Shown here: in pieces, positions 2,286-21,489 of the stretch
Position numbering within the stretch: the stretch's first letter is position 1
How the letters are laid out: every line of letters begins with the position of its first letter
Assembly (NCBI GenBank): GCA_913060435.1
Contig: CAJXSB010000001.1
Coordinates: forward strand, 1-58,944
Direction: 5' to 3'
DNA length: 58,944 nucleotides
DNA from: an uncultured Desulfococcus sp.
GTDB lineage: Bacteria > Desulfobacterota > Desulfobacteria > Desulfobacterales > Desulfococcaceae
The notes under the pieces: model-generated
Told to the model about the DNA's origin: nothing
The model's database searches: none
What the model saw: the letters and a program-made list of their open reading frames with translations, nothing else
Position numbers and translations under genes: made by a program

Positions 2286-2442
2286 GCCCGGCAGAAGCCG
2301 GGCAAGATAAAGGAAAGAATCGCCCGGTCCTGATGCCGGCGTTCGAAAGATGCATTCCGGGGATACCCCTGGACGATGCCGCGACGAATATAGGCCACGA
2401 AGGTCATCCCCTCCGGATGGAGGCGCCTTCGCGGCCTTTTTT
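2286..2442 (+). promoter_or_regulatory. Dual-hairpin attenuator-like leader, copy A (upstream of DUF3842-cooT)
   Basis: TTGACT at 2244. Hairpin GCCCGGC-AGAA-GCCGGGC (2286-2303). GGCC-ACGAA-GGTC (2393-2405) also pairs with CCTTCGCGGCC, followed by T6. Confidence 0.7.
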
Positions 2443-2479
2443 GTGGGATGCCCCGTCCGGGGCGGATGAGGACATCGAA

Positions 2480-2905
2480 TTGAGGAAACGGATCTGCGTG
2501 ATTGACGGGCAGGGCGGCGGCATCGGCGCCACCCTGATCAAATATTTGAAAAGCGCCTACGGCGAATCGGTCGAGCTGATCGCCCTGGGCACCAATGCCA
2601 TCGCCACGGCCGGGATGCTCAAAGCCGGGGCCAACCGGGGGGCGTCGGGGGAGAATGCCATCTGCCGCTCCGTCTGGCAGGCCGACGCTGTTGTCGGCCC
2701 CATCGGCATCACCTGGGCCAATGCCATGCTCGGCGAGGTAACGCCGCAGATGGCCGAGGCGGTCATGTCGAGCCCGGCCCCGAAGGTTCTCCTACCGTTG
2801 TCCCAGGAGAACGCGGAGATCGTGGGGATGGCCAAAGAGCCGCTGCCGCACCTGGTTGAGGCTGTGGTGACGGGGAAAATAAAGGAGGTACTGGAACATG
2901 TGTGA
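2480..2905 (+). CDS. DUF3842 family protein
   Basis: ICVIDGQGGGIG...ALGTNAIATAGMLKAGANRGASGENAI...NAMLGEVTP signature; TTG start after GAGGA. Confidence 0.85.
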   Translation: MRKRICVIDGQGGGIGATLIKYLKSAYGESVELIALGTNAIATAGMLKAGANRGASGENAICRSVWQADAVVGPIGITWANAMLGEVTPQMAEAVMSSPAPKVLLPLSQENAEIVGMAKEPLPHLVEAVVTGKIKEVLEHV

Positions 2906-3086
2906 AGCCAATGCGTATCTGGTCAAGGAGAACGAGGAAACCCTGATCATGGAGTCGGTCGACCTGGTGGAGCCCGAGGGGGAGGATTCCTGGCGGCTGG
3001 TGGGTATTTTCGGCGACCAGAAAATTGTCAAGGGCCGCATCCGCGGCATGAACCTGGTCGATCACAAGATCCTTTTCGAGGCGTGA
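2898..3086 (+). CDS. cooT: CooT family nickel-binding protein
   Basis: 62 aa, MCEANAY...IMESVD...IFGDQK...MNLVDHKI; Cys2 and late His are typical of CooT; overlaps the DUF3842 stop. Confidence 0.85.
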   Translation: MCEANAYLVKENEETLIMESVDLVEPEGEDSWRLVGIFGDQKIVKGRIRGMNLVDHKILFEA

Positions 3087-3093
3087 CGACGGC

Positions 3094-4914
3094 CTATTCG
3101 TGATCGTGGTGATGGGGCTCGGCATCGTGGTCCGGGTGGTCGTGTTCGTGGTAGCGGTGGGGGGCGTGGTCGTGGGCTTCGTGTCCGCGATCGTGCCGGT
3201 GGACGAAGCGGTGGGGATGCTCGTGGACGTGCTCGTGGGGGTGGCTGTGCACCAGCGCGCCGTGACGGTGGGGGTGGTCGTGGAGATGCCGGTGGGGATG
3301 GCTGTGCTCATGTTCGTGCTGCAGTTCCCGGATGGCGCTGCTGCAGTCCCGGCGATAGGTAAAGGCCAGGCCGTTGAGGCTGCCCAGGGCCTCGTCCGCC
3401 AGGAAATCCCGGGTCGGCAGGTCGCAGCCGATCTCGCCGCGGTGCATCACCAGCGTCCGCTGGGTCAGCTCGCCCACGAAGAACATGTCGTGGCTGACCA
3501 GGAGCAGGGTTACATCGAGATCCCGGATGATCCCCAGCAGCAGCTCCTCTCCCTCGGGGTCGAGCCCGGCCGTCGGTTCGTCTAAGATCAGCAGCTCCGG
3601 CGACATGGCGAGTACGCAGGCCAGCGCCAGGCGCTTCCGCTCGCCGCCGGAAAGGTGCAGCGGAACCCGGTTCTCGAATCCCGAAAGGCGCACCCGCGCC
3701 AGGGTCTCCTGGACCCGGTCTTCGATTTCACCGGGCGGACAGCCGAGCCGGCGGAGGCCGAAGGCCACCTCCTCCGCCACGCTCGGGCAGAAGAGCTGGT
3801 CGGCGCAGTCCTGGAACACCATCCCCACCCGCCGCCAGAGGGACTTCTGCCGCCGTCTGGTCACCGCCCTCCCGGCGAACCGGAAGGTTCCGCTGCCCTG
3901 GCGCAGGCCGAGAAGGCAGGAGAGGAGGGTGGTCTTGCCGGCGCCGTTCTCGCCGACCAGGGCGACGCGTTCGCCTGCGGCGATGTCGAGGTCGACGCCG
4001 CCAAGGGCTCGGGTCCCGTCCGGGTACCGGTAATCAAAGCCCCGGAGGGAGACCAGCGGCGTCTCCGGGACCGCATCCCCGGTCGGCGCCGGCGGGCTGA
4101 TGCGGACCGGCGCCCTCCCGATGCCCCCGTCGTGCACCGGCGCAACTCCGGCCAGCCGGAAGGAGAAATCGAGGCCGTGCCCCCGCAGGGATGCGCGGTG
4201 GGAGACGAGGGCGCGCATGGTAAAATCGTGGTGGATCCGGCCCCGGTCGATCACCACGGCCCGGTCGCAGAGTTCGTAGAGGAAGATCAGATCATGGCTG
4301 ATGCAGAGGAGGGTGCCGGGAAAATCCCGGAGGAGGTTGAGGAAGATCTCCTCCTGCTGCGGGTCGAGGTTGGTGGTCGGCTCATCCAGGATCAGCACTG
4401 CGGGCTGCATGGCCAGGAGCCCGGCCAGTGCCGCGCGCTTCTTCTGGCCGAGGCTGAGGTTGTGGGGTGCTTTGTAGGCCATCTCTGAAAGGCCGACCTG
4501 CGCCAGGGCGACGCGGGCGGCCTCGCGGGCCGACGCAGGGGCCAGACCCTGCTGCCGGGGACCGAAGGCCGCGTCGTCGATGAGGGTGTGGCAGAAGAGC
4601 TGGTCGTCCGGGTCCTGGAAGAGGAGGCCGATCTCCAGGCGGGCCTGGTCAAGGTGGGATCCTGCCAGGGGACGGCCCCGGTAGGCGATCGTTCCGGCGG
4701 CGGGGAAGAGAAGCCCGCAGAGCAGCTTGACCAGGGTCGTCTTTCCCGAGCCGTTGTGCCCCACCAGGGCGATCCGGTCGCCTGGTGCGATGTCGAGGTC
4801 GATGCCGGAGAGGGCGGAGGTGCCGTCGGCGTATCGGTAGCGGAGCTCCCGAACGCTGAAAAGGGTCTCTTCCGGGTCCGGCTGCAGCACCGGCGGGGTG
4901 GGGTCATGCATCAC
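3094..4914 (-). CDS. cbiO: ECF transporter ATPase (tandem CbiO/NikO domains) with His-rich C-terminal tail
   Basis: Two ABC domains (GHNGSGKT/LSLGQ/LDEP and GENGAGKT/LSGGE/LDEP), FQDPDDQLF motif, and an ~75-aa HxH tail. Confidence 0.9.
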   Translation of the reverse strand: MMHDPTPPVLQPDPEETLFSVRELRYRYADGTSALSGIDLDIAPGDRIALVGHNGSGKTTLVKLLCGLLFPAAGTIAYRGRPLAGSHLDQARLEIGLLFQDPDDQLFCHTLIDDAAFGPRQQGLAPASAREAARVALAQVGLSEMAYKAPHNLSLGQKKRAALAGLLAMQPAVLILDEPTTNLDPQQEEIFLNLLRDFPGTLLCISHDLIFLYELCDRAVVIDRGRIHHDFTMRALVSHRASLRGHGLDFSFRLAGVAPVHDGGIGRAPVRISPPAPTGDAVPETPLVSLRGFDYRYPDGTRALGGVDLDIAAGERVALVGENGAGKTTLLSCLLGLRQGSGTFRFAGRAVTRRRQKSLWRRVGMVFQDCADQLFCPSVAEEVAFGLRRLGCPPGEIEDRVQETLARVRLSGFENRVPLHLSGGERKRLALACVLAMSPELLILDEPTAGLDPEGEELLLGIIRDLDVTLLLVSHDMFFVGELTQRTLVMHRGEIGCDLPTRDFLADEALGSLNGLAFTYRRDCSSAIRELQHEHEHSHPHRHLHDHPHRHGALVHSHPHEHVHEHPHRFVHRHDRGHEAHDHAPHRYHEHDHPDHDAEPHHHDHE

Positions 4915-4923
4915 GGCGGCACC

Positions 4924-5874
4924 TCACCAGCAGATCTGGTCCCAAAAAATCCGGTCCCAAAAAATCCGATCATAGATCACCAGGCCGATGCCGACGGCCA
5001 GCCAGACGGCCGCCAGGACCAGATCCTTCGCCGCCATCCGCGTTGCGGCCGGTGCCGGGAAGTGCCCCCGGTAGCCCCGGGCCCGCATGGCGTCGAAGAC
5101 CCGCTCCGTCCGCTCGAAGCTCCGCACGAAGAGCATGCCGAGGAAATTGGCCACGGCGCGCAGGGTCTCGAGATCGGTCCGCTTCCGGAATCCCCGGACC
5201 CGCATGCCGGCGGCCATTCGTTCGGCCTCGTGCCGAAAGACGTGAAGGTAGCGGTGGCTCAGCAGCACCATCTGGCCCACCATGTCCGGCGCCCCCAGCC
5301 GCGTCAGACCGTGGAGGGTAACGGGCAGCGGCGCCGTGGTCAAGAGCGGCTCCATGAGGAGGGCGATGGCAATGCCCTTGGCGGCGATGGCCAGGGCTTT
5401 GTAGAGGCCCCGGAGATTGAAGCCGAGCCAGTCCACGCCGGTGACGACCAGGACCGTATCTCCGGGATGGGCCGGGGCTGAGAGGGGCATGACCACCAGG
5501 AACATGGCCAGAAAACCGGTGATCGCGAGAAGCCGCATCAGCGCCCGCGCCAGGGAGGAGCGCGCCAGCACCAGGGCCAGCACCGACACGGCGACAGCGG
5601 CCAGGGCCGGTGTTAGGTGCTGGAGGGAGGCCACCAGAAAGCTGTAGACGACGAGGGCCGCGATCTTGCAGCGGACGTCCCATCGATGGAAGAGGGTCGT
5701 CCCGGCGGCATCCGCCAGGGGCGGCACCGACCAGTCCGGATTATCGCCGTTCATGCTGCGCTGTTTCAGCATGCGGCGCAGGCCCGCGGCAGCCCCTGCC
5801 AGAAGGCCCAGCGGCGCCAGCAGGAGTGCGGCGAACTGCCACGCCGGCAGCGCGATCTGCAGGATGTCACCCAT
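4924..5874 (-). CDS. cbiQ: ECF transporter T component CbiQ/NikQ
   Basis: HRWDVRCKI, RYLHVF...AGMRVRGF and RSFERTERVFDAMRARGY motifs. Confidence 0.9.
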   Translation of the reverse strand: MGDILQIALPAWQFAALLLAPLGLLAGAAAGLRRMLKQRSMNGDNPDWSVPPLADAAGTTLFHRWDVRCKIAALVVYSFLVASLQHLTPALAAVAVSVLALVLARSSLARALMRLLAITGFLAMFLVVMPLSAPAHPGDTVLVVTGVDWLGFNLRGLYKALAIAAKGIAIALLMEPLLTTAPLPVTLHGLTRLGAPDMVGQMVLLSHRYLHVFRHEAERMAAGMRVRGFRKRTDLETLRAVANFLGMLFVRSFERTERVFDAMRARGYRGHFPAPAATRMAAKDLVLAAVWLAVGIGLVIYDRIFWDRIFWDQICW

Positions 5875-6541
5875 GGGCCGGGCTGTCCGGCGGCTCCTGG
5901 GGAGGGGCGTTCAATTCCGGCTGCCGGGGGTGTCCCTGCACAAAGGCCGGCGCCAGCAGCTCGGGCTTGACCCGGACCAGGAAGGCGACGGTGAAGGCGC
6001 TGACCGCCCCTTCGATGAGAATGACCGGTATATGGGCTGCCAGGGCAATCTTGGCCACGCCGAAAAAGTCTTCGCCCCCGGAGGCCAGTAGCAGCGCCAG
6101 GATCAGCGCGGCAAGGGCGGTTCCCAATGCCCCGGCAAGGCCGCCGACCAGCGACTGCCGACGCCGGCTGCGCCCTTTGAGCTTCTGGAAGAAGACGCCG
6201 CAGGCCAGCGCCGGCACCCCCATCATGAGGGCATTGGCGCCCAGGGCGGTCAGCCCGCCGAACTGGAAAAGGATGCTCTGCAGGAGCAGGCCGAGGCCGA
6301 TGGCCAAAAAGGCCGAGGGGCCCAGAAGCGCCCCTGCCAGGCCGGGAATGAGCAGGTGGACGCTGGTGGGGCCGAAGGGGACATGAATCAGGGATGCCAC
6401 GAAGAAGGCCGCCGTTACCACCGCCACCTTGGGCAGCTCTTCGCTCCGGGTGCGGCGGACGCTCCATGCGGCCAGCGCTGCGCTGGCCGCATAGGCGCCG
6501 ACGGTGATGGAGATGGGGAGAACCCCGTCGGAAATGTGCAT
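5867..6541 (-). CDS. cbiM: ECF substrate component CbiM/NikM
   Basis: N-terminal MHISDGVL, plus FFVASLIHVP, SVHL and LFQFGGLTALGAN. Confidence 0.93.
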   Translation of the reverse strand: MHISDGVLPISITVGAYAASAALAAWSVRRTRSEELPKVAVVTAAFFVASLIHVPFGPTSVHLLIPGLAGALLGPSAFLAIGLGLLLQSILFQFGGLTALGANALMMGVPALACGVFFQKLKGRSRRRQSLVGGLAGALGTALAALILALLLASGGEDFFGVAKIALAAHIPVILIEGAVSAFTVAFLVRVKPELLAPAFVQGHPRQPELNAPPQEPPDSPAHG

Positions 6542-6543
6542 CG

Positions 6544-6921
6544 TCAAGTCCTGCCCTGGCCCCTGTCCGGGGCGTTGGGATCGTTGTCGGCCGAACCAGG
6601 CGGGCGTTTGTCCCGGCGCCGGCTCGCCGCAAAGGCGGCGGCGCCGAAGAGGCCCATGATGTAGCCGATGCCGGCGAAGACCTCCTGGAGGCCCGGCCGG
6701 CTCATATCCGCCCGCAGCGCGGCGAGCTCCCGGTGGATGCGGCGCAGGTCCCGGGAGAGGGCGGCGTTCTGTTCGGCAAGGAGCGCCGCCGGATCCGGCG
6801 GGGGCTGCGCTTCGGGCGACTCGGCCCGGGCCGGACCCGGCATGCCGATCATGCCGGCCAGCAAAGCCGCGGCCACGAGGAGCTTCTTACCCCAAAACAG
6901 CCCTTTTCCGCAACCGGTCAT
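6544..6921 (-). CDS. Membrane protein resembling the C-terminal half of NikL/CbiL
   Basis: Signal-like N-terminus, coiled segment, PGLQEVFAGIGYIMGLFGAAAF transmembrane helix and basic tail; lies within the operon. Confidence 0.65.
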   Translation of the reverse strand: MTGCGKGLFWGKKLLVAAALLAGMIGMPGPARAESPEAQPPPDPAALLAEQNAALSRDLRRIHRELAALRADMSRPGLQEVFAGIGYIMGLFGAAAFAASRRRDKRPPGSADNDPNAPDRGQGRT

Positions 6922-7250
6922 TTCCCGGCCTCCACCTCGGTTTTTTTCAGGTGAAAGCGATTTTTATGCCCCATGCCGGCGTCGATGACGATGGTCAGGT
7001 CATCAACCTTGGGGATGGGAAAGCGGAAGAGCCCGCCTGGATCCGTCGTTCCCTCCAGCAGCAGAGCCTCTTCGCTGTCGTAGACCCGGACGGTGCCGTT
7101 CTCCACTTTGCTGCCGTCCGGGAAATAGCTCTCGGTATAGATGGTTCCCCCGTCGACATAGGCGAACAGGTGGACCTTGTGGGCCAGGGCGGGGCCGGCG
7201 AAGAGCGCCGACACCAGCATCAATGCAGCCACGCCGGTAAGAATCTTCAT
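6918..7250 (-). CDS. Periplasmic protein resembling the N-terminal half of NikL/CbiL
   Basis: Signal peptide ending ALA, then HKVHLFAYVDGGTIYTESYFPDG...DAGMGH. Confidence 0.7.
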   Translation of the reverse strand: MKILTGVAALMLVSALFAGPALAHKVHLFAYVDGGTIYTESYFPDGSKVENGTVRVYDSEEALLLEGTTDPGGLFRFPIPKVDDLTIVIDAGMGHKNRFHLKKTEVEAGK

Positions 7251-7264
7251 CGTGCCATCCTCGA

Positions 7265-8071
7265 TTATTTCATGTCCCGGGTGTGGACCCAGAAGACCGC
7301 GCCGATCTCGACGTTCTTCTTCTCTCCCTCGTGGTCGATGGTCCAGTCCGCCTCGTTCAGGGCGGAAAATCCCCACCAGCCGGCCTTGGGCATGGCGTAG
7401 CTGAACACCCCGTTGGCGTCCGCCTTGACCACCTGGGTCACATAGGGGTCCGCCGGCGCCACGACCACGCTGATGTTGCCGGGGGAGGCGTTCAGGTACT
7501 CGATCTCCACCTCGGCATTGGGGACCGGCTTCCCCTTGAGCAGCACCTGGCCGGTGAAGAGGTTGCCGGTCCAGAGGCCGTAGGGCCGTGCCATGGGGAG
7601 GATTTCGGTCTCCAGCCCGACAGGCTGATCCCAGCCCTCCTCGAGGCCCAGGGCGTTGACGCAGACCTTGGTGTAGTGGACGATGTAGAGGTCCTCGGCC
7701 GGCTCCCAGTAGGGGGTCGGCTCGATGAAAAAGGTATAGTCCCCCGGCCGGCGGATCGGATATTCGGCGGTCCAGAAGGTCAGCTCCTCGGTCGGACCGT
7801 GCCCTTTTGCCTTGGCCTCCTGCAGGGTGGCGAGCAGGTCGGTCTTCTGGTCATTGTGCATCACCCCGAACTGCTTGGGTTTGGCCATCTCCATGAGATG
7901 CTGCTCCAGGGGATGGAGAAACTGGATCTCGATGTTCAATGTCTTGGCGTCATCCTGGGTGACGATGTCGTCCGACGGGATGACCGCGCCGAAATGGGCG
8001 GATGCCGGGGGTGCCAAAAGCAGCATCAGTGCCGCCGCCGCGGTGAACAGAATCGAACTTCCTCTTCGCAT
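7265..8071 (-). CDS. DUF4198 / NikK-like periplasmic Ni/Co uptake protein
   Basis: Signal peptide ending ASA, then HFG; [25 protein letters not shown] and GWWGFSAL motifs. Confidence 0.85.
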
Positions 8072-8120
8072 CTTTGCCTCCTGTCATGGTGTTATGAAGC
8101 CACAAGCTTCCGGTCGAAAC

Positions 8121-8262
8121 AAAAAAAGCCACAGAAAACGTCCGTCCTTTCGGGAAATCCCTCTGCCAGGAATCTCCAGGAGGTAGGTCGCCTTCGTGGC
8201 TCGAATGATTGGGCACGACTTTTTTTGGAGCAAGCATCAAACAAGACGGGCTTCAACCCGTC
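8121..8262 (-). promoter_or_regulatory. Dual-hairpin attenuator-like leader, copy B (upstream of the ECF operon)
   Basis: Minus strand: TTGACA (8304-8299); GACGGGT-TGAA-GCCCGTC (8262-8245); GCC-ACGAA-GGC (8200-8190); 3' arm TTTTCTGTGGC plus T7. Confidence 0.65.
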
Positions 8263-8410
8263 CATTGGGCCCTATCTCTACCCCAAGGAATGCATTGATG
8301 TCAATCCCTATCTGACCATCTTCTATGGGGGGATGAACTGGGCAGGGGGATAAACTGGAAAAAATTATGGTTGACTTCTCATTACCGGTTGGCTATTTGG
8401 CTTTCATCAT

Positions 8411-8547
8411 CCCGTGGACAGAAGTCTGCGGGGCGGTCCGCAGGCAGATTTCTCGCCGCTGTTGATGACGGTGGTGGTCTCCAGGAAAGAAGCCACGAAG
8501 GCTGTGCTCTCCCATACCGTGGGGAAAGCGTCTTCGTGGCTTTTTTT
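8411..8547 (+). promoter_or_regulatory. Dual-hairpin attenuator-like leader, copy C (upstream of the TonB-dependent receptor)
   Basis: TTGACT at 8371, 17 bp spacer, TATTTG. CCCGTGGAC-AGAA-GTCTGCGGG (8411-8432); AGCC-ACGAA-GGCT (8491-8503); CTTCGTGGC plus T7. Confidence 0.75.
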
Positions 8548-8641: not shown

Positions 8642-8701
8642 AAGCCAGGAAGACTTCGGAGAATACGGAACGTATTCGCACCGTTGCTTCCCGGCTTTTT
8701 T
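8642..8701 (+). terminator. Second, partial copy D of the attenuator terminator
   Basis: AGCCAGGAAG...CTTCCCGGC plus T6, in tandem after copy C. Confidence 0.55.
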
Positions 8702-8848
8702 GCCGCGGGCCGGCCATCGCGTTGCCAGGATGAAAGGGCCTGCAGGGGCAGTGCTTCCATGCCGCCGGTGAAGACGGTCTGGTGGTTTGCATCAACATGG
8801 ACGGCACATCGATGAATTGGCATCTGACCCCTGACAAAGGAAGTGGAG

Positions 8849-11008
8849 ATGAGGTATGCAAGTTTTCTGTCGGCACTGATTTTCTTGGCCTGGGCCGGTC
8901 CCCTGTTTGCGGAAGAGACCCTTACCCTTGCACCGATGACCGTGACGGCGGAGCGGGAAATTTCAGCGGAGCGCAACGAGGTCACCGTCGATCTCGAAAC
9001 CGAGGCCAGCCCCGTGGTCTCGACGGTTCCCGATGCCCTGGACAAGACATCGGGACTGGACATCCAGCGCCGGTCCATTCTCACCCCCAAGAGCAGCCAG
9101 GTGCGCATCCGGGGATTCGATGAGCGGCGCTCCCTCATCATGCTGGACGGCCGGCCCCTCAACGGGACCGGCGTCATGGGCGGGCAGTTTGTGGACTGGA
9201 GCATCCTGGCCATTCAGGGCTGGCAGTCGGTGGATGTGGGCAAGGGCGCCTTCAGCGCCAAATACGGCAATACCCTGGGCGGCACCATAGAACTGACACC
9301 CATACCGCTTTCCGAGGGGATTTCGGCAAACGCCTCGACGGGCTATAAGCGTTACGACACCTGGTCCCTGGGGGCGTCGGTTTCCGCCCGTCATGAAAAC
9401 CTGGGCGGCCGTGTTTCGGCTGGGTATGCCGCCACCGACGGAAACCTGCGGAACAGCGAGGCAAATCGGGCCGATGCCTCCGCGGATCTCTATTATTACT
9501 GGGGCGGCGACGGGGAGATCAAGGGGAGCGTTCGCTATACCGAAGGGGATTTCAACATGCCGGTGGAAAACCAGGCGGACCTTCCCGGGTACGATCCAGC
9601 CTACCCGGAGAGCCTGGGCACCTACCTCATCGGGCCCGGCATTCAATTCCCCTCCGGCGACCGGCATGGCGACGGCAGCTACTACAACAAGAAACGAACG
9701 GAGCTGGACCTCGGCATCCGGAAAAACATCGCCGGGTTCGATTCCCAGGTGAAGGTCTATTTCAACGATGAGTACCGGAAGGATTTTATCTACTCGTACG
9801 AAGAGGACCGCCTGGTCCTGGAGCGGGATGCGACGCCGGACCGGTCGTGGGGGTGGGTGACCCGTTTTTCACGGCTGTTGGGGGCCCACCGGATCGGGTT
9901 CGGGGCCGACGGCAACTACCAGGGATACGGCGGTACGGAAAACACCTTCATCCAGGACGGATATTTTTCCAGGCCTGTCACCGACGGTAGTGATGAATGG
10001 GACGCCACCCGCTGGCAGGGGGCGTACATTGACGACGAATGGGCCATTTTGAACGACCTGAGCCTCTATGGCGGCCTACGGTATGATGATTATTATGGAG
10101 ACCGGAGTGTCGACCAGGTAACGGGATATGTCAACAAAAAACCTGCCGGATTCGAGACCGTGGATGCGCATTTCAACGAAAGCGTCCTCCTCCCCAAACT
10201 CGGCCTGGTGTACAGGCCCCTGGACGGCCTTGCGCTGTTCGGGCGGTTCGCACGAGCCACCCGGTTCCCGGACAATCCGGCTTTTTACTGGTATTACGGC
10301 GGATACCGGCCCGAGGTGGACCCCAACTCGGATGTGGTCCGAAAGCCCCTGACCTATGAGGACGCCCTCCAATACGAAGCCGGGGTCCGATACACCGGCA
10401 TCCAGGGGCTGTCGGTGGCCCTCAGCTATTACAACTACCAGGTGGACGACTACATCCGCTGGATCTTCGGCTATGCCCCCAGCCGGGTGGTCTACAACAT
10501 CGATCAGGTCGATTTTCAGGGGGTGGAGCTGGACACGGAAGGCCGGATCTGGGGAAATTGGTCGGCTTTCTTCAACGCCACCTGGCAGCAGACGAAAAAG
10601 AAGGGAGATGTCCTCGACGCCAGCAACGCCCTCTCCGATGCGCTCTCGGAACTGCCGGAGTTCAAGTTCAACACCGGCATCAAATACCAGCGGCCCGACG
10701 GTCTTCAGGCCAGGGCGACCCTCCGATGGGTGGACGATCGGGAGGTGCCGTTTCTCGGTGCGCCCGGGGCGCCCTTTGCCGGCGGCAGCGCCCCGGACGG
10801 CGCCCCCATGGGCAGCCCGGTCACCCTCAAGACCCTGGACGCCTTTACGGTGGTGGACCTCTCCCTGAAATATCCGCTCTGGAAGGGTCGGTCCGAAGGG
10901 TTCGTGACGGCCGGGGTGGAAAACCTGTTCGACGAGAATTACGAAGAGGAGTACGGCTTCCCCCAACCCGGCCAGACTTTTTTCATCACTGCGGAAATCG
11001 CCTATTAA
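8849..11008 (+). CDS. TonB-dependent receptor
   Basis: Signal peptide, MTVTAER TonB-box-like segment, plug motif IRGF...LDGRP, C-terminal VENLFDENY...AEIAY. Confidence 0.9.
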   Translation: MRYASFLSALIFLAWAGPLFAEETLTLAPMTVTAEREISAERNEVTVDLETEASPVVSTVPDALDKTSGLDIQRRSILTPKSSQVRIRGFDERRSLIMLDGRPLNGTGVMGGQFVDWSILAIQGWQSVDVGKGAFSAKYGNTLGGTIELTPIPLSEGISANASTGYKRYDTWSLGASVSARHENLGGRVSAGYAATDGNLRNSEANRADASADLYYYWGGDGEIKGSVRYTEGDFNMPVENQADLPGYDPAYPESLGTYLIGPGIQFPSGDRHGDGSYYNKKRTELDLGIRKNIAGFDSQVKVYFNDEYRKDFIYSYEEDRLVLERDATPDRSWGWVTRFSRLLGAHRIGFGADGNYQGYGGTENTFIQDGYFSRPVTDGSDEWDATRWQGAYIDDEWAILNDLSLYGGLRYDDYYGDRSVDQVTGYVNKKPAGFETVDAHFNESVLLPKLGLVYRPLDGLALFGRFARATRFPDNPAFYWYYGGYRPEVDPNSDVVRKPLTYEDALQYEAGVRYTGIQGLSVALSYYNYQVDDYIRWIFGYAPSRVVYNIDQVDFQGVELDTEGRIWGNWSAFFNATWQQTKKKGDVLDASNALSDALSELPEFKFNTGIKYQRPDGLQARATLRWVDDREVPFLGAPGAPFAGGSAPDGAPMGSPVTLKTLDAFTVVDLSLKYPLWKGRSEGFVTAGVENLFDENYEEEYGFPQPGQTFFITAEIAY

Positions 11009-11021
11009 CGGAGGAAAAGAT

Positions 11022-11579
11022 ATGGAGAAGACCCTTTGGGACGAAATGGAAATGACATTGAAGCCCGTGGGATATGTTCGGAGCGGCATTGCACAGCCCA
11101 TGCTGACGGCCGGCGAGGAAGACCTGGCGCTGGCGGAGCGGATGGAAAAGATCCGGCGCTATCATCAGAAGGTGAAAGAGACGGTCTGCGAGCTGGTCAT
11201 CGACCCTGGCCTTGCCGGCATCCTGGAAGGGATCGAGGATTTTTCCCATATCCTGGTGCTCTATTGGCCCCACCTGATTCCGGAATCCCGGCGCGGCCTG
11301 CGCCGGGTTCATCCCATGGGCCGGAAGGACCTCCCCATCAAGGGGATCTTTGCCACCTGCAGCCCGGCCAGGCCCAACCCCATTCTGGTGTCTACCGTCC
11401 CCCTGGTGGAGGTCGCCGGCAATGTTCTCCGGGTGCGGGGGCTCGAAGCCGTGGACGGCAGCCCCATCGTGGACATCAAGCCGTTTTCGAAAAGCTACCA
11501 CGGCGCCGAGGAGGTCCGGGTCCCGGCATGGATGGAGCAGATCCGGCGGGAGCTTGAAGAAGCGGAGGGGGATCATTAA
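11022..11579 (+). CDS. TsaA/TrmO-like SAM-binding protein
   Basis: LKPVGYVRS, GIEDFSHILVLYW, GIFATCSPARPNPI and GLEAVDGSPIVDIKP motifs. Confidence 0.85.
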   Translation: MEKTLWDEMEMTLKPVGYVRSGIAQPMLTAGEEDLALAERMEKIRRYHQKVKETVCELVIDPGLAGILEGIEDFSHILVLYWPHLIPESRRGLRRVHPMGRKDLPIKGIFATCSPARPNPILVSTVPLVEVAGNVLRVRGLEAVDGSPIVDIKPFSKSYHGAEEVRVPAWMEQIRRELEEAEGDH

Positions 11580-11617
11580 TTTATGATTATAAACCCAACC
11601 CGTAAGGAGTATGGCGC

Positions 11618-12217
11618 ATGAATTCACAGGAGATTATGAACAGCGAGGACTTTCAGCGGTGTGCGGCTTTTCACGGCCACATCTGCCCGGGGCTCTCCAT
11701 CGGGTACCGTGCCGCCAAGGCCGGCATGGCGTGGCTGGCGGAGCAACGGGCCGAGGACGAGGAGGTGGTGGCCGTCGTCGAGACGGACGCCTGCTCCGCC
11801 GATGCGGTGCAGGTCCTGACCGGCTGCACCTTCGGCAAGGGCAACTTTATCTTCAAGGACCACGGCAAGATGGTGCTGACCATCCTGAGCCGGAAGAATG
11901 GCAAAGGGGTGCGGGTCTCTCTCCGGCCCGAAGCCTTTTCACCGGACGCCGAGCACACCGCCCTGATCCGGAAGGTAACGGGCGGGGAGGCGAGTCCGGC
12001 GGAGGAGGCCCGTTTTCGGGAGCTTCACCTGCAGCGGAGCCGGGACCTGCTGGAGAGACCTGTTGGGGATCTATTCGAACTGGCGCCCGCCGAGATGGCG
12101 ATGCCCGGAAAAGCGCGGATTGAGCCCTCCGAGCCGTGTGCGCGGTGCGGGGAGCCGACCATGCCTTCGAAGATGGAAAGCATCGACGGAAAGAAAATCT
12201 GCCGCGGATGCCTCTGA
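11618..12217 (+). CDS. FmdE family protein with C-terminal zinc finger
   Basis: FHGHICPG, ETDACSADAVQVLTGCTFGKGN, CARCGE...ICRGC. Confidence 0.9.
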   Translation: MNSQEIMNSEDFQRCAAFHGHICPGLSIGYRAAKAGMAWLAEQRAEDEEVVAVVETDACSADAVQVLTGCTFGKGNFIFKDHGKMVLTILSRKNGKGVRVSLRPEAFSPDAEHTALIRKVTGGEASPAEEARFRELHLQRSRDLLERPVGDLFELAPAEMAMPGKARIEPSEPCARCGEPTMPSKMESIDGKKICRGCL

Positions 12218-12267
12218 CGCCGCGAAGGATGTTTCCCAAAACCCTAATTACTGAAGGAGGTCCAAAT

Positions 12268-12528
12268 ATGGAAGGTGATCACAAGCATCAACACAAACAC
12301 ACCCATGAGCATACCCATCAACATGAGCACCCCCACACCCATGACGGCCAGACCCACACCCACCCCCACGAGCACCGCCATGCGCATGAGCATGATCACG
12401 AACACGCCCATGCCCACACCCATGCGGGCGGGGTAGACGATCACGGACATGAGCATTCGGGGGAGCATGGCGTCCATGATCATGACCATCCCGAACACGA
12501 AAAGGAGCCTCACGACCATTCCCATTGA
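12268..12528 (+). CDS. Small His-rich protein (86 aa, 34 His)
   Basis: Strong RBS AAGGAGG and ATG at 12268; alternating HxH sequence. Confidence 0.85.
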   Translation: MEGDHKHQHKHTHEHTHQHEHPHTHDGQTHTHPHEHRHAHEHDHEHAHAHTHAGGVDDHGHEHSGEHGVHDHDHPEHEKEPHDHSH

Positions 12529-12639
12529 CGGAAATCGCGAAGCAGCAGCGGGAAAATTAACGGAACCCGCGGCAGTGGCAGCGGGCAAAAATGGCTTGAC
12601 TTCCCCATGGGATATTGATTACAAATACGTTTATACCCA

Positions 12640-12753
12640 GGCGGCAGAAGCCGCCCGAATGAGATAACCGCAAGAAGACAAAAAAATTTTCAATACAGCC
12701 ACGAAGGCAGCGCTTCCGGAGAACGGAGGCTGCTTCGTGGCTGTTTTTATTTT
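12640..12753 (+). promoter_or_regulatory. Dual-hairpin attenuator-like leader, copy E (upstream of the FecCD-type ABC operon)
   Basis: TTGACT at 12596; GGCGGC-AGAA-GCCGCC (12640-12655); GCC-ACGAA-GGC (12698-12708); CTTCGTGGCTG followed by a T-rich tract. Confidence 0.75.
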
Positions 12754-12759
12754 GGAGGA

Positions 12760-13815
12760 ATGGAGATGGAAGATACGGCCTGCGCACCAGTTCTGAAAGG
12801 GAGGGACGGGGCGGCCACCCGGGTCTATCGGCAGACCATGCGTCGAAAACGGATGCTGCTGTCGGTCCTCTGGGGCGCCATCGGGGTGATAGGCCTCTAT
12901 GCCGTGACCCAGGGCGCCTATGACCTGACGGTGGAGAAGATGCTGCGGGCCCTTGCCGGCGGCCTGTCGCCCGCGGAATCGGTGGTGGTCTGGAACATCC
13001 GGCTGCCCCGCATCATCGCCGCAGTGGTGGTGGGATGGGGGCTCGCCCTCTCCGGTCTCGGCATCCAGTCGCTCCTGAAAAACCCCCTGGGCTCGCCGTC
13101 CACCCTGGGCATCAGCCAGGGGGCGGCATTCGGCGCAGCGTCGGCCATCGTGGTCTTCGACAGCCAGGTCGCTTCGGTGACGGCCATGGCCTTCGCGGGC
13201 GCCATGGCGGCCACGGGCATCATTCTGCTCCTGGGCCGCCTCAAGCGCCTCACCCCCGAAGCCGTCATCCTCGCCGGCGTGGCCCTGTCGTCGCTCTTTG
13301 CGTCTGCGACGATCCTGATCCAGTATATCGCCACCGAGACCGAACTGGCCGTGGTGGTCTTCTGGACCTTCGGGGACGTGGCTCGGTCCGGATGGCGGGA
13401 GATCGGTCTCCTGAGCGTCGCCGTGGCCGGGGTCACCCTCTTTTTCATGATCCGCCGCTGGGACTTGAACGCCCTGGCTTCCGGGGAGGAGACCGCCCGG
13501 GGCCTGGGGGTGAACGTAGAACGGGTCCGGGTCGAGGGGATGGTGGCCGCCGCACTGGTGGCGGCCCTGGCCACCGCCTTCTGCGGCGTAATCGCCTTTG
13601 TGGGGTTGATCGCACCCCACATGGCCCGCCGCCTGGTGGGGGGGGATCATTCTCTGCTGATTCCCTTCTCGGCCGTTCTGGGGGCACTGCTGCTCCTGTC
13701 GGCCGATACCCTGGGGCGGGTGATCGCGGGTTCGGGTGCGCTTCCCGTGGGCGTGGTGACCGCTTTCCTGGGCGCGCCCATGTTTCTTTACCTGCTGGTT
13801 CGGGGATACCGATAA
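12760..13815 (+). CDS. FecCD/BtuC-family ABC permease
   Basis: IRLPRI, QSLLKNPLGSPSTLGISQGA, GEETARGLGV, FVGLIAPH and LPVGVVTAFLGAP motifs. Confidence 0.92.
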   Translation: MEMEDTACAPVLKGRDGAATRVYRQTMRRKRMLLSVLWGAIGVIGLYAVTQGAYDLTVEKMLRALAGGLSPAESVVVWNIRLPRIIAAVVVGWGLALSGLGIQSLLKNPLGSPSTLGISQGAAFGAASAIVVFDSQVASVTAMAFAGAMAATGIILLLGRLKRLTPEAVILAGVALSSLFASATILIQYIATETELAVVVFWTFGDVARSGWREIGLLSVAVAGVTLFFMIRRWDLNALASGEETARGLGVNVERVRVEGMVAAALVAALATAFCGVIAFVGLIAPHMARRLVGGDHSLLIPFSAVLGALLLLSADTLGRVIAGSGALPVGVVTAFLGAPMFLYLLVRGYR

Positions 13816-14594
13816 TGGGAAAAGCCCTTGCCGGGAACGGGATGATCCTGGAGGTTTCGGGCATCCGATTCTCCTACAACAGCCACCCGGTGCTGGCGGG
13901 AATCGGCTTCTCCCTGGCGCCCGGCCGGGTCCTGGGGGTCCTGGGCCGGAATGGTGCGGGGAAATCGACCCTCCTCAAATGCCTCAACCGCATCCTCTCT
14001 CCCCAGTCCGGCGCCGTACTGCTGGAAGGCGAGGACCTCCTCTCCATGGGCCGCAGGGCGGTGGCCCGCAGGGTCGGATATGTCCCTCAGCGGCATGACG
14101 CGGAGCGCCTTACGGTATATGAGACGGTCCTCCTCGGCCGGAAGCCGCACATGGGGTGGACGGTCTCCCCGGAAGACTGCCGGCGGGTCGAGACGATCCT
14201 CGAGCAGATGGGGCTGACCCTGCTCTCCGCCCGTCCAGTCTCGGACCTGAGCGGCGGCGAGGTCCAGAAGGTGATAATCGCCCGTGCCCTGGCCCAGTCC
14301 CCCGGGGTGCTGCTTCTGGATGAACCCACCAGCAACCTGGACCTCAAGAACCAGCTGGAAGTAATGGGGCTTGTTCGCGGCATCGCCCGGAATCAGGGGC
14401 TTTCCGCCGTGGTCTCCATCCATGACCTCAATCTGGCCGTCCGCTTCGCCGACAGCTTCCTGTTTCTCAAGGATCACCGGGTGCACGCCCTGGTGGAAAA
14501 AGACGGCCTGAACGCGGACATCATCCAGGAGGTCTACGGCGTCGGGGTCTCCCTTCGGGAGGTGGACGGCAGCACCGTGGTGATACCTTTGTAG
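13815..14594 (+). CDS. ABC ATPase (FepC/FecE type)
   Basis: GRNGAGKST, LSGGE, LLLDEPTSNLD and IHDLNLA; start may be 13842. Confidence 0.92.
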   Translation: MGKALAGNGMILEVSGIRFSYNSHPVLAGIGFSLAPGRVLGVLGRNGAGKSTLLKCLNRILSPQSGAVLLEGEDLLSMGRRAVARRVGYVPQRHDAERLTVYETVLLGRKPHMGWTVSPEDCRRVETILEQMGLTLLSARPVSDLSGGEVQKVIIARALAQSPGVLLLDEPTSNLDLKNQLEVMGLVRGIARNQGLSAVVSIHDLNLAVRFADSFLFLKDHRVHALVEKDGLNADIIQEVYGVGVSLREVDGSTVVIPL

Positions 14595-14610
14595 CGCGGA
14601 AGGAGGAGAC

Positions 14611-15702
14611 GTGAAATATTTTTGGTTGGCAGGTGGGCTGCTCATCTCTCTGGTGCTCGCCTCCGGTGCTGCCGCAGCGGAAGCCGTGGCGGTGAAGGAT
14701 ACGGCCGGGCGGATGGTGACGGTGCCCGAAGATCCGGATCGCATCGTCGCCATCGGTCCCGGCAGCCTGCGGCTGATGGTCTACCTCGAGGCCCAGGACA
14801 AGGTGGTCGGCGTGGAGGATATGGAGAAGATGAATCCTGCCGGGCGCCCCTACTGGATCGCCCACCCGGACCTGGCGCGGCTGCCCCGCTGCGGGCCGGG
14901 AGGTCCTGCTGGCATCAACAAGAAGCCCGACATGGAGGCGGTGGTGGCCTTGGCCCCCCAGGTGATCTTCACCACCTATATGGACGCCGCCCTGGCCGAA
15001 GCGGTGCAGACGACCCTGGGCATTCCCGTGGTGGTATTGAGCTATGGCACCTTCGCCACCTTTGACGACGCGGTCTACGATTCCCTCCGGATCGCCGGAA
15101 AAATTCTGAACCGCGGGAAACGGGCCGAGGATGTCGTGGATTTTATCGAGGCGGTGCAGCGCGATCTCCGGAAGCGGGTCGGTGACATTCCCGAAGACCG
15201 GAAGCCGGGGGCCTACGTGGGGGGAATCGGCTATCGCGGGGCCCACGGCATCGAAAGCACAGAGGTCGACTACATTCCATTGACGTGGGCGGGCGCCCGC
15301 AACCTGGCAGACCAGGTGACCGCCCGCATCGGCAGCCACGTATTCGTGGACAAGGAGATTCTGCTGGGCCTCAATCCCGACGTCATCTTCATCGACGGCG
15401 GGGGCCTCGCCCTGGTGGCCGAGGACGTCCGGCGGAACCCTGAATTCTACGCCGCCCTGAAGGCCTTCCAGACCCGGCGTGCCTATGTGCTGCTGCCGTT
15501 CAACTTCTACACCACCAATATCGGCACGGCCCTGGCCGATGCCTACGCCGTCGGGAAACTGCTCTATCCCGAACGATTCAGGGATGTCGATCCCGAGGCC
15601 AAGGCCGACGAGATCTACGCATTTTTCGTCGGGCGTCCGGTCTACCGGGAAATGGCGCGGGACTTCAGCCCCATCGGTCAGGTGGCGCCGTTTGTCGAAT
15701 GA
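14611..15702 (+). CDS. Metal-chelate ABC substrate-binding protein
   Basis: RBS AAGGAGGAG before GTG; signal peptide; VKDTAGRMVTVP..PDRIVA; NPDVIFID. Confidence 0.9.
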   Translation: MKYFWLAGGLLISLVLASGAAAAEAVAVKDTAGRMVTVPEDPDRIVAIGPGSLRLMVYLEAQDKVVGVEDMEKMNPAGRPYWIAHPDLARLPRCGPGGPAGINKKPDMEAVVALAPQVIFTTYMDAALAEAVQTTLGIPVVVLSYGTFATFDDAVYDSLRIAGKILNRGKRAEDVVDFIEAVQRDLRKRVGDIPEDRKPGAYVGGIGYRGAHGIESTEVDYIPLTWAGARNLADQVTARIGSHVFVDKEILLGLNPDVIFIDGGGLALVAEDVRRNPEFYAALKAFQTRRAYVLLPFNFYTTNIGTALADAYAVGKLLYPERFRDVDPEAKADEIYAFFVGRPVYREMARDFSPIGQVAPFVE

Positions 15703-15796
15703 TTCGCCTGAACGAAATTCGAGTAAAGCATACTAAATTTTGCAGCAAAGGGTGCCGCGTAATAAAGAAGGGGGGATGCGGCAGAGGGGAACAGAT

Positions 15797-16618: not shown

Positions 16619-16693
16619 TCCTCGTCAATGACGCCGGTGGGGCGGAATCCGGCCCCGGAGAACACCGGCTGATGAAACGCTGAAGTTGCGCAA

Positions 16694-16867: not shown

Positions 16868-16925
16868 TGGATTTTCCTTCCTCAAAATGAGTGGCCGGGG
16901 CACCAGCACGGGGTCGCTGGCTTCC

Positions 16926-17447: not shown

Positions 17448-17557
17448 CGCTTGCTCTCCTTCTCCGGCCGATTTTCCTATGCGGTTTGGATGCGGACGGC
17501 GGCCGTCGACGCCGCCGCCCGTCCCTCGCGGAATGTCCCCAATGGAGATCCGCTGAT

Positions 17558-18463: not shown

Positions 18464-18565
18464 TTCTTCTCCCTTTCTGTCATAAATGATGTTGCGTTAT
18501 TGGTGATGGATCCGGAAAAAGTCCGTTTCCATCCATTCCCCCGCGACGGGTACCGGCCCCGGGTC

Positions 18566-18603
18566 AAAAAAAAATCCCGGATCGATGAAGATCGATCCGG
18601 GAT
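18566..18603 (-). terminator. Intrinsic terminator of the cbiK riboswitch expression platform
   Basis: Minus strand ATCCCGGATCGAT-CTTC-ATCGATCCGGGAT followed by a T-run. Confidence 0.8.
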
Positions 18604-18690
18604 GTCCCTTTTTTATCCGCAGATGGCTGGCGACGCCGCTGCATCGCACATGGAGGACACCAGCGTCCGCGCAGGTGTCGCCCCGGTCGA

Positions 18691-18848
18691 CCAGGCAGGT
18701 CTTCTGACTCTCGGATCATCCTACCGGCGGCGCCTTCCCGACCTTTCGGCCAGTGGCGTCCTGCCGCTTTCGTCCCCGATCACAGCGGCGGGCCCGTCCC
18801 CGAATTCCACGGGGTTCCCTCTTCGGCTCTAAATTTGAGCGCCTGATC
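18691..18848 (-). ncRNA. Cobalamin riboswitch (cbiK-cobA)
   Basis: Minus strand AGGGAACCCCGTG...GCCCGCCGCTGTGA...GCCACTGG...GGGAAGG...AGTCAGAAGACCTGCC (B12 box). Confidence 0.92.
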
Positions 18849-19142
18849 AATAATGGGCAACATAGAAACAAAGGGATCCAAAAGTCAAGGGTAAAATCAT
18901 GACGATGGTAAGGGGGCCGGTAGGCGGCGGGGCTGATTGCCAAGGATTCTCCTGCCAGCGGCCAACCTCCGCTTGACATCGTCGCGCTGGCACGGTTATG
19001 AAAGGAGAGAATGACATCCAGCTGGAACAGGTTCTATTCCGGCGGGGTTGCGGGGTGCCGGAAAAGCGCTTGACAACCATCTAAAATGTCGTCTAATTAA
19101 TAATGATGTCAGGTTCCAATTCTTTAGCAAAAAGGGGGTAGC

Positions 19143-19703
19143 ATGGCAGCCAAAGAGAAAGCCGAAGAAAAGCCCCTGACCACCGTAATGGAGGACTATC
19201 TGGAGGCGATTTTTAACCTGGACAAGGAGAAACGGTTTGTCCGCGTCAAGGATATCGCCAAAAAGATGGACGTGAAAATGCCCACCGTGACCAGCATGCT
19301 CAAATCTTTGAAGGAGCGGGGGCTGGTGAACTATGAAAAATACGAATACGTGGAGTTGACCAGGTCCGGTACCTCTGTGGGCAAAGAGATGCGGCGACGG
19401 CATAAGGTGCTGAATAAATTTCTCACCGAAATCCTCCGGGTTCAACCGGAAATCGCCGACGAAGAGGCCTGCAGAATGGAGCATACCCTCAGTTCCCATA
19501 CGCTGGACAGCCTGATCGATTTTATGGAATTTATCCAGACCTGTCCGCGAACCGGCGAAAACTGGCTCGAGTTTTTCACCGAATACCGCAAGCATGGGCG
19601 CAGGCCTGAAAAATGCCAGGCGCGGTGCGAGTCATTTTCCGACGATTTCAAAAAGCAGGTGGATTCCCTGGAAAAGAAGAAGAAAGGAAAAGATACCGGC
19701 TGA
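19143..19703 (+). CDS. DtxR/MntR family metal-dependent repressor
   Basis: MEDYLEAI, RVKDIAKKMDVKMPTV, RRHKVL and EEACRMEH. Confidence 0.92.
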   Translation: MAAKEKAEEKPLTTVMEDYLEAIFNLDKEKRFVRVKDIAKKMDVKMPTVTSMLKSLKERGLVNYEKYEYVELTRSGTSVGKEMRRRHKVLNKFLTEILRVQPEIADEEACRMEHTLSSHTLDSLIDFMEFIQTCPRTGENWLEFFTEYRKHGRRPEKCQARCESFSDDFKKQVDSLEKKKKGKDTG

Positions 19704-19836
19704 CCCCACGGACGGCCCCGTATCCGGCATATGACGCTCTGGCAGTGGTCGCTCAAAAGGCGTCTTTTTTTTGGCCCGAAAAATTAGACCCATCAAATAC
19801 CAGAAGTATTGGCTATCTTGATGAGGATCGACAAGC

Positions 19837-19936
19837 ATGAACTGATCGATGCGCTGAATGCGAGTGCCGCGTCGCCAATTACAAGGTCACCCTCCGAAGC
19901 TCGGAGGCGTCGCTGATCGAGGTCGAGTGTGAATAA
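19837..19936 (+). pseudogene. feoA: feoA remnant
   Basis: 19862-19936 reads ECRVANYKVTLRSSEASLIEVECE*, resembling a FeoA C-terminus, with no in-frame start; sits directly before the feoB remnant. Confidence 0.6.
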
Positions 19937-19983
19937 TCCGCCCCCAGGGGCGCCCACCACAAGCAGGGCATCGCGTTACCAAT

Positions 19984-21116
19984 ATGAAAATGTCACCCGC
20001 AACAAAGGACGACAGGCTTCTGGTTGGCCTGGCCGGGCACCAGAACGCCGGAAAATCGACGGCGTTCAACGTGGTGGACGCCTCCTCCCTGAAGCGGAGC
20101 CTCTATTTCTCTTTCCAGATCATGGAGATGGGGTTCCCGGTGGTCGTCGCGGAAGGGCTGCGGGCGGACAGCCCTTTGCTGAAAACGGCCCAGCGGATCC
20201 GGGACGGGTTTGAAGAAGACCACTACATGACCGTAGCGGACTATATGGTCGGGTGCCGGGATCGCCTGGCCACCTCCATCATCGAATCCTGCGTCCGGGA
20301 AACCAGGGACGGCCGTGACACCATTACCGACATGATCGACATGGTGGTCCTCAACCGTTTCGCCGCGCCGTTTTTTCTGATCGGCACCGGTTTTGTGATT
20401 TATCAATTGTCTATCGTCAAAGGCCATGACCTGCCCCAGTACTGTTGGCCGATACTGGCCCGGCTGCGGGCTTTTGGGGCCGGGATCCTGCCCGACGCCG
20501 GCATGCTGCAGGATCCGTATGTCCGTGCCATGGGGCTCTGGATGGTGGACTCGGCCAACGCACTGCTCAACTATGTTCCCATCTTCCTGATTCTTTTCGC
20601 ATTGATCGCCATTTTCGAGGACAGCGGGTACATGGCGCGAATCGCCTTCATCCTGGACAAGCTCTTCCACTCCTTGGGCCTTCACGGCCAGTCTACGCTG
20701 CCGTATCGACCATCACCATTTTCGTGGCCCTGCTCGTTGCCCGGCTCCTGACCGCCACGATGCTCAAGTCCATGGAGACCGCTCCATTTGTCATGGATCT
20801 GCCCAAATATCATCCGCCCACCATTTTCGGGGTGGGACAGCGGGCCGTCGAATGCACCTGGCAATATATCAAAAGGGTCGGCACCATTGTCGTGGCGGTT
20901 TCGGTCTGCATCCTTTCCTCCTTTGCCGCCAGGGAGTCGAGCGTGGCAACCATCAGCAATGCGGCAATTCGGGGGGGCCTGTACTTCAGCACATGTTCCA
21001 TGATGACGCCTCCTTCCAGCCGGACCTATCTGGTCCGCATCCTTCGCATTGTGGCGGATGCGATGGAAAACCGGATGTCCGTGGAGGGGTCGCCGAGCAA
21101 CTGGGCAGGATTTTGA
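19984..21116 (+). pseudogene. feoB: feoB pseudogene with several internal deletions and a frameshift
   Basis: G1 GHQNAGKST runs straight into VVDASSL..SLY; G2/G3/G4 are missing. EDSGYMARIAFILDK..GLHGQS is followed by a frame change to PFVMDLPKYHPP...KRVGTIV. About 1.1 kb versus ~2 kb or more for an intact gene; 3' end uncertain. Confidence 0.85.
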
Positions 21117-21383
21117 TCAAGACCGGCTTCGCAGTCCATTATCCGGAAGTGGCGGAATCTTTAACGTGGGTGGGATGTATGTGTCAGTTTGCAGCCGCTG
21201 AATAAGAGAAGGCGCAACTCGATCACCATCGATCTCGAGCTACGCCTTCACTTTTTCCCTTCCGTTTCTGCAGACAGAAATCTTTACGATGATTTTTTGG
21301 GAGACATCCGAACGACAGTTCGCCGGCAAGGAAGGGGTTCCGCTTGACAATGGCTGTGATTTTGGGTAACCAGAAAGCCCATA

Positions 21384-21489
21384 GCGTGGCAGAAGTCGCG
21401 CCGACAGAAAAAAAGCATCTCTTCCAAAAGAAAATTCAGCCAAGAAGGCCGGGCCCTGAAACGGGGCAGCGTGTCTTCTTGGCTTTTTT
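21384..21489 (+). promoter_or_regulatory. Dual-hairpin attenuator-like leader, copy F (in tandem with a cobalamin riboswitch)
   Basis: TTGACA at 21344; GCGTGGC-AGAA-GTCGCGC (21384-21401); GCC-AAGAA-GGC (21439-21449); CTTCTTGGC plus T6. Confidence 0.75.

Follow-up and report, generated by a model that had tools for sequence, protein, structure and literature searches.

Whether a transcript terminates is settled by a leader-binding protein in the BglG/LicT RAT, GlpP, HutP, PyrR and lambda N-boxB systems; PyrR illustrates that an enzyme-like fold is capable of this, and boxB is a short purine-rich pentaloop. Here, we describe five leaders of a single architecture (two small GAA-loop hairpins, the second overlapping a predicted terminator) in a 58,944-nucleotide (nt) stretch of DNA from an uncultured Desulfococcus sp. 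(the whole stretch hereafter being the window), where they precede metal-uptake operons and a DUF3842-cooT gene pair. The five systems named differ from these leaders in their RNA motifs, proteins and signals, and none of them is known to respond to nickel. The ANTAR systems (EutV, NasR, AmiR; PMC3369931, in excerpt) are closer in that their leaders have two small conserved-loop hairpins with the second overlapping a terminator, are OFF by default and serve a signal common to many operons; however, ANTAR targets carry hexanucleotide loops with A1 and G4 and a linker of 5–12 nt (14 nt is already harmful in eutP), whereas the leaders here have tetra- or pentaloops ending in GAA, a spacer of 9–142 nt and metal-uptake targets, and track DUF3842/CooT. 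The genes themselves are familiar from NikR, for which nikMQO/nikK are the predicted regulon in Desulfovibrio, Geobacter and relatives (delta-proteobacteria; PMC545781, in excerpt). The same nikMQO/nikK/nikL-type genes are the likely targets here, but NikR is a DNA-binding repressor that acts at a GTGTTAC-N13/14-GTAACAC box and the leaders are RNA; a NikR_C search of this genome (98.8% complete) gave no match, and no NikR operator box was found in the window with one mismatch allowed per half-site. Finally, the NiCo (czcD) riboswitch (PMC7917058, in excerpt) also ties RNA-level terminator control to Ni/Co, but it binds the metal directly and turns its genes ON with metal, whereas the targets here are importers and the leaders have no Rfam match. 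The antitermination logic is already known; the RNA motif, its candidate reader and its signal are new.

The leaders are almost certainly real attenuators, they are very probably read by a protein, and the signal is in good probability nickel. Taking these parts together, we lean modestly toward the view that the conserved two-GAA-loop leaders are bound by a protein that prevents termination under nickel scarcity, with DUF3842-CooT as the probable reader. The five leaders (A, B, C, D and F), which lie exactly where the first-pass annotation of this DNA had placed them, and a degenerate sixth unit that it overlooked, are as follows.

2244–2249, forward strand: TTGACT, predicted −35 element of leader A; the position is conserved in 51/74 related loci and was missed by a consensus scan.
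2286–2303, forward strand: hairpin 1 of leader A, with an AGAA tetraloop.
2393–2442, forward strand: hairpin 2 of leader A (ACGAA loop, 2393–2405), overlapping the predicted intrinsic terminator and T-run; 49.1 bits, model seed.
8121–8262, reverse strand: leader B, with TTGACA 42 nt upstream, hairpin 1 (UGAA) at 8262–8245, hairpin 2 from 8200 and a long terminator.
8371–8547, forward strand: leader C, with TTGACT at 8371, hairpin 1 (AGAA) at 8411–8434, hairpin 2 at 8492 and a terminator.
8644–8702, forward strand: degenerate sixth unit in tandem behind leader C, an AGGAA word plus terminator; 28.5 bits, E 2.5e-5.
12596–12753, forward strand: leader D, with TTGACT at 12596, hairpin 1 (AGAA), an A-rich spacer, hairpin 2 at 12698 and a terminator.
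21344–21489, forward strand: leader F, with TTGACA at 21344, hairpin 1 (AGAA), hairpin 2 (AAGAA loop) at 21439 and a terminator with a matching A:T change.

All five copies display the layout first proposed for them, in which TTGAC is followed by a GAA-loop hairpin 1, a spacer and a GCCANGAAGGY hairpin 2 that overlaps the predicted terminator. The distance from TTGAC to hairpin 1 is 42 nt in copies A and B, 40 nt in C and F and 44 nt in D, and the hairpin 1 loop is AGAA in A, C, D and F and UGAA in B; we take these two tetraloops to share one loop fold. Hairpin 2, GCC-A(C/A)GAA-GG(C/T), is at the same time the 5′ arm of a long terminator hairpin that ends in a T-run, so the two folds are mutually exclusive; the terminator arm of copy B is TTTTCTGTGGC, an imperfect match, and the compensatory change reported for copy F (A:T in place of C:G) is real. 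In folding computed for the five leaders, the long hairpin with hairpin 2 as its 5′ arm reaches −27 to −35 kcal/mol and hairpin 2 alone −3.5 to −4.8 kcal/mol. The description of the spacer as A-rich has to be narrowed: it holds for D (0.54) and F (0.50) and fails for A (0.28), B (0.26) and C (0.18). The spacers of the window leaders are 36–87 nt long, and those of leaders A and C fold into hairpins. The sixth unit is without a hairpin 1 and its hairpin 2 does not fold alone. A sigma-70 consensus scan called none of the five leader promoters and showed no excess, so their assignment rests on the conserved position of TTGAC. A GAA hairpin precedes 15 of the 175 hairpin-2-like words in the 4.58 Mb genome, and just 5 of these possess TTGAC and a T-run too, all inside the window.

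From the observed sequences, exclusive folds, energy gap, conservation, gene context and distribution, we infer promoter use, termination, a protein that bridges both loops, a nickel signal and a DUF3842/CooT reader, which would act together as follows. Judging by the position of TTGAC, transcription would start just before hairpin 1, which would form at once and, according to the folding, never compete with the terminator; this early folding free of competition would make it the loading site. The variable spacer would be looped out, being mostly unstructured when short and self-folding when long in computed folds. The default would be OFF, as hairpin 2 is computed to be ~25 kcal/mol weaker than the terminator, and on that energy gap read-through should need something that holds hairpin 2; by analogy with ANTAR, a dimeric or oligomeric protein would bind both loops and cause antitermination. 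An occupied hairpin 2 would open importers, so the binder is expected to work in the absence of nickel, and nickel, probably via Cys2 of CooT, would inactivate it and close uptake, as suggested by the controlled genes and the exclusion with NikR. Leader A would render DUF3842-cooT autoregulated. Attenuation by a leader peptide was considered and rejected, as a Shine–Dalgarno sequence with ATG occurs in just 1 of 73 spacers. Metatranscriptome contigs of a near strain span terminator A into DUF3842 in three of four runs; they were not used, since they come without ends, strand or level and may include DNA.

The first-pass annotation had recognized no described family for these leaders, and an Rfam 15 covariance-model scan of all five agrees, with no match up to E 10 (NiCo, cobalamin and others); Rfam finds four cobalamin riboswitches in the window, none of them on the leaders. 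The hairpin 2 plus terminator pattern occurs in 17 of 41 relatives and in 18 of 251 genomes of the phylum, and the reversed-pattern control in none of the 41 and none of the 251. A collection scan limited to hairpin 2 and the terminator returned at least 119 loci from several anaerobic phyla; the 80 titles among the matches listed include Desulfobacterales, Syntrophobacteraceae, clostridia, Nitrospira, Anaerolineae and spirochaetes. Hairpin 1 was left out of this query and its presence upstream was scored separately: it was found in 62 of the 123 matches with full upstream sequence (3.8 ± 1.9 in shuffles, 4 in the reverse complement) and, under a relaxed rule and with 8 reverse-strand duplicates removed, in 74 of 115 versus 2.8 in shuffles, its loops being AGAA (21), AUGAA (13), AAGAA (12), UGAA (11), ACGAA (6) and AGGAA (5). 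TTGAC precedes the hairpin 1 loop by 42–60 nt in 51 of these 74 loci. Across 73 loci the spacer has a median of 49 nt, and the long spacers fold on themselves to leave at most 43 exterior unpaired bases. The leaders are members of a widespread RNA element that stands before nickel/cobalt uptake genes, mostly in anaerobes without NikR. Three viral contigs (L220–L222) also match the hairpin 2 plus terminator pattern.

To assess conservation, 87 of the collection matches, chosen by length, were aligned with four window copies; since the search pattern fixed most columns, the information lies in the free ones. A pair between the variable loop base and its terminator partner is present in 87/91 sequences (CG 44, UA 26, AU 8, UG 7, GC 2) and the outer pair is kept in 83/91; the covariation score of the terminator pairs was reached by 0/500 shuffles, which ignore kinship. 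After GAAGG, all 91 sequences carry C or U, as closure of hairpin 2 by pairing with G7 demands; the next pair is kept in 60/91 and the pair beyond in 46/91, so the stem is short. Both folds are conserved at positions left free by the search. These results bear on the notion that the leaders are ordinary terminators, or a repeat, without any regulatory switch. The RNA model R1 (see below) scores plain terminators weakly too, and ~13 of 75 loci lie before unrelated or unassigned genes; but the leaders sit between a promoter-like site and the first gene, the closing base of hairpin 2 and hairpin 1 are conserved although neither has a role in the terminator, and the genome holds only five full copies, so that this notion is scarcely credible.

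The same conservation distinguishes between the two options left by the first-pass annotation, protein-dependent antitermination and a riboswitch. The loops are conserved and the stems variable, the pattern expected of a protein site. The cis position, the alternative terminator and the covariation would suit a riboswitch that senses a metal or metabolite with its two loops and needs no protein, and the folding of long spacers could let the loops approach each other; yet there are only ~11 conserved bases plus the GAA loop, the spacer length varies widely, a ligand holding hairpin 2 would switch uptake ON in the presence of metal, the logic of NiCo (PMC7917058, in excerpt) and the wrong sign for importers, and the dependence on DUF3842 would be left unexplained. 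We therefore judge such a riboswitch very unlikely, and of the two options for a distinct, undescribed signal, protein-dependent antitermination is by far the better supported.

That protein could in principle be the GAF-ANTAR protein of this genome, with the leaders as divergent ANTAR targets: the two-hairpin logic is the same and one ANTAR gene is present. Against this, the loops have 4–5 nt instead of 6 and the spacers extend far beyond the 5–12 nt linker (PMC3369931, in excerpt), two differences by which the leaders had been set apart from ANTAR at the outset and which are borne out here; moreover, an ANTAR gene is found in only 13 of 27 RNA-positive genomes, whose completeness is not established. 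The leaders thus share with ANTAR targets the two hairpins and the terminator, and lack the hexaloop, the short linker and a consistently accompanying ANTAR gene. The ANTAR gene of this genome also adjoins a canonical leader of its own (G000:C231, L149:290–640), which serves as a control and consists of two A..G.. hexaloops and a terminator before an open reading frame (ORF) that we presume to be glutamate-synthase-like. A divergent ANTAR target is an extremely improbable explanation.

The genes behind the leaders in the window are listed here.

2480–2905, forward strand: DUF3842 gene under leader A, with a predicted TTG start; candidate trans factor, modeled with confidence (pLDDT 95.6) as a single Rossmann-like alpha/beta domain.
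2898–3086, forward strand: cooT, whose product has Cys2; candidate nickel sensor.
3094–8071, reverse strand: ECF nickel/cobalt transporter operon under leader B (DUF4198, two NikL-like genes, CbiM/NikM, CbiQ/NikQ and an ATPase with a His-rich tail).
8843–12528, forward strand: TonB-dependent receptor, TsaA/TrmO-like protein, FmdE with a zinc finger and a His-rich ORF, under leader C.
12760–15702, forward strand: FecCD-type ABC transporter (permease, ATPase and periplasmic binding protein) under leader D.
21535–21840, forward strand: between leader F and the TonB genes, a second TTGACA (21535), a cobalamin riboswitch (21569–21753) and its terminator (21802–21833 plus T-run), in tandem behind leader F.
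21937–26871, forward strand: TonB energizer operon under leader F (DUF3450 with an approximate start, two ExbB, ExbD, TonB and a TPR protein).

This context is mirrored in the collection, where 80 loci have long flanks and 75 of them an ORF (the first two ORFs, sorted by hand, were counted). Metal-uptake or nickel genes follow in 62 of the 75, the classes being CbiM/NikL/DUF4198/ECF, family-5 binding protein, TonB part, porin, FecCD or other ABC part, FmdE, LarE-LarB, cooT and DUF3842; the remaining 13 are unassigned, unrelated or probable chance matches. The consistent place before uptake genes supports the original idea of an attenuation signal for metal uptake at the 5′ position, and, with only five full copies in 4.58 Mb, the element is not a dispersed repeat of the repetitive extragenic palindrome type. 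The leader also occurs before larE-larB in two genomes and before a fumarase operon in one (L056, L083, L093), so some targets are not transporters. NikL, LarE-LarB and cooT among the targets point to nickel. The same switch could instead respond to shortage of cobalt or of transition metals in general, since the CbiM, CbiQ, FecCD and TonB families serve several metals, one locus (L058) precedes CobN/Mg-chelatase and the window is rich in cobalamin genes; but NikL, LarE-LarB and cooT are tied to nickel, the regulator excluded is NikR, and the cobalt/B12 genes of the window (cbiK, a second TonB receptor) carry cobalamin riboswitches instead. We consider this alternative improbable, and nickel better supported than cobalt as the signal for a protein-read switch.

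The candidate reader was sought in the distribution of proteins and RNA. This genome has two DUF3842, one CooT and one ANTAR. Across the 251 genomes of the phylum, DUF3842 is present in 98 and NikR in 120, with both in 12 versus 47 expected, and over half of the sampled genomes have no NikR match; CooT occurs in 152, including 97 of the 98 with DUF3842. The exact RNA pattern was found in 18 genomes, 17 of which have DUF3842. The model R1 was run on 150 of the 251 genomes, drawn by protein class, and at E ≤ 0.01 it matched 49/56 with DUF3842 only, 11/12 with both proteins, 9/55 with NikR only and 4/27 with neither, amounting to 60/68 DUF3842 genomes versus 13/82 others; at E ≤ 1e-4 the matches number 36, 8, 1 and 1, respectively. 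(Leader B is unscored by R1, whose seed has shorter inner stems.) The best matches in 10 of the 13 DUF3842-negative genomes were inspected and comprise eight plain terminators without the loop and two real leaders, in G174 and G207. CooT is insufficient for the RNA, as the element is present in 2 of 30 CooT-positive, DUF3842-negative genomes. Within one genus (g63), the RNA is found, by pattern or by model, in five genomes that have DUF3842, and a plain terminator is all that turned up in G104, which has NikR and no DUF3842. Another 27 pattern-positive genomes were chosen, mostly from outside the order of the window; 24 of them yielded DUF3842 and 13 ANTAR, and neither protein was found for four loci that had been set aside in advance as probable chance matches. 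In 11 of 56 genomes, DUF3842 has a leader no more than 400 nt away, which in 9 of them stands just downstream. We regard it as an evenly balanced proposition that DUF3842 and CooT together constitute a nickel sensor that binds RNA, causes antitermination at paired GAA-loop hairpins and replaces NikR in Desulfobacterota, Bacillota, Nitrospirota, Chloroflexota and Spirochaetota.

CooT of the window keeps Cys2, through which Rhodospirillum CooT binds nickel with a Kd of 9 nM per dimer (PMC6006190, in excerpt). DUF3842 has conserved DGQGGGIG, GTN, GEN and GE motifs and the conserved residues Lys49 and Lys103. Its best matches are a Foldseek hit at E 4.6e-4 and a VIA score of Z 9.6, with 71 chains at Z ≥ 8 and none that stands out; an ESM Atlas search returned only DUF3842 clusters or nothing. 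The C-terminal half bears a weak likeness to uL1 (profile E 0.26, hhalign probability 36%), the motif GPIGI..ANAMLGEVTP resembling a conserved uL1 stretch below significance, and the rows listed in the fold searches do not include uL1. Prediction of a DUF3842 and CooT complex scored 0.00, which says nothing either way.

Several observations weigh against a DUF3842-CooT reader that senses nickel at paired loops. Hairpin 1 was not found in 41 of the 115 matches, about a third. A real leader and CooT occur together without a DUF3842 match in G174 and G207 (95% and 90% complete, respectively), the leader of G207 standing directly before cooT; conversely, R1 is without a match in 8 of 68 DUF3842 genomes. 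The genomes are kin, not independent, so the DUF3842, NikR and RNA counts overstate significance. The second DUF3842 here (G000:C162:3477–3863, L151), 60% identical and located between parB-like and ispH-like ORFs, has no leader or cooT that we could see at its locus. The CbiM, FecCD and TonB families alone cannot separate nickel from cobalt. No conserved His or Cys site was found in DUF3842, and its fold searches gave only generic Rossmann, flavodoxin, TIR and receiver rows; DUF3842 could be an enzyme or chaperone merely within the regulon. As modeled, its fold would neither support nor exclude RNA binding and is the weakest link of the model. Antitermination could instead be due to a third protein, with DUF3842 and CooT as nickel-handling members of the regulon or as an upstream sensor: the DUF3842 fold is enzyme-like, glycine-rich and without an RNA-binding match, two RNA-positive genomes lack DUF3842, and CooT is known as an accessory protein of carbon monoxide dehydrogenase (PMC6006190, in excerpt). 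However, as expected of a dedicated regulator, DUF3842 follows the RNA from phylum to phylum, rarely occurs together with NikR, is mostly single-copy per genome and often lies beside a leader, and we hold a third reader to be unlikely, though worth serious consideration.

Literature searches gave nothing on this RNA by title or abstract start, and 'DUF3842' led only to unrelated work. Term searches of the main text of PMC11109978, PMC5737381, PMC8632094 and PMC11247825 and of one PMC8632094 supplement found no such motif in those parts; a Desulfobacteraceae motif is covered in PMC11109978, whose supplements, like those of PMC5737381, were outside the scope of these searches and may list the present one. 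Dependence on nickel enzymes is common among sulfate reducers, syntrophs and clostridia, and the element offers a candidate answer to how they control nickel import where NikR is missing. It would give DUF3842 a candidate function and CooT a possible regulatory role, and could, as a signature, help to recognize nickel transporters among TonB, porin, ECF and ABC systems that are still unassigned. If the DUF3842/CooT model is true, it would add a new antiterminator protein family and a new RNA motif, and to our knowledge constitute the first protein-read transcription antitermination system with a metal signal.

The tandem behind leader F has counterparts: counting the window, three genomes (window 21344–21840; L216:2397–2703; L204:1008–1405) have the new leader and a cobalamin riboswitch one after the other, in either order, upstream of TonB or cobalt genes, and each element apparently has a TTG-type promoter of its own. 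Judged by the minimum-energy fold, the first stems of the cobalamin aptamer behind leader F might be disturbed by upstream sequence; GGCGGGC at 21518 was considered as a partner pairing into the aptamer and rejected (pairing probability 0.05). Three more cobalamin riboswitches, at 18677–18861, 32031–32267 and 47754–47932, lie before cbiK, before the second TonB receptor and among large ORFs (41850–53132) without a Pfam match. Directly 5′ of DUF3842-cooT are selD, yedF and a rubredoxin gene (220–2204), and the TonB receptor at 8843 scores highest, though below the cut-off, with receptor families that have a selenocysteine motif. Apparent feoB fragments in different frames come after an MntR/DtxR-like regulator (19143–21205). 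Finally, the region 27273–31723 encodes a NifH/CfbC-like domain fused to a nitrogenase component-1-like domain (743 aa), then a second component-1-like gene, both within a cobalamin and metal-uptake island.

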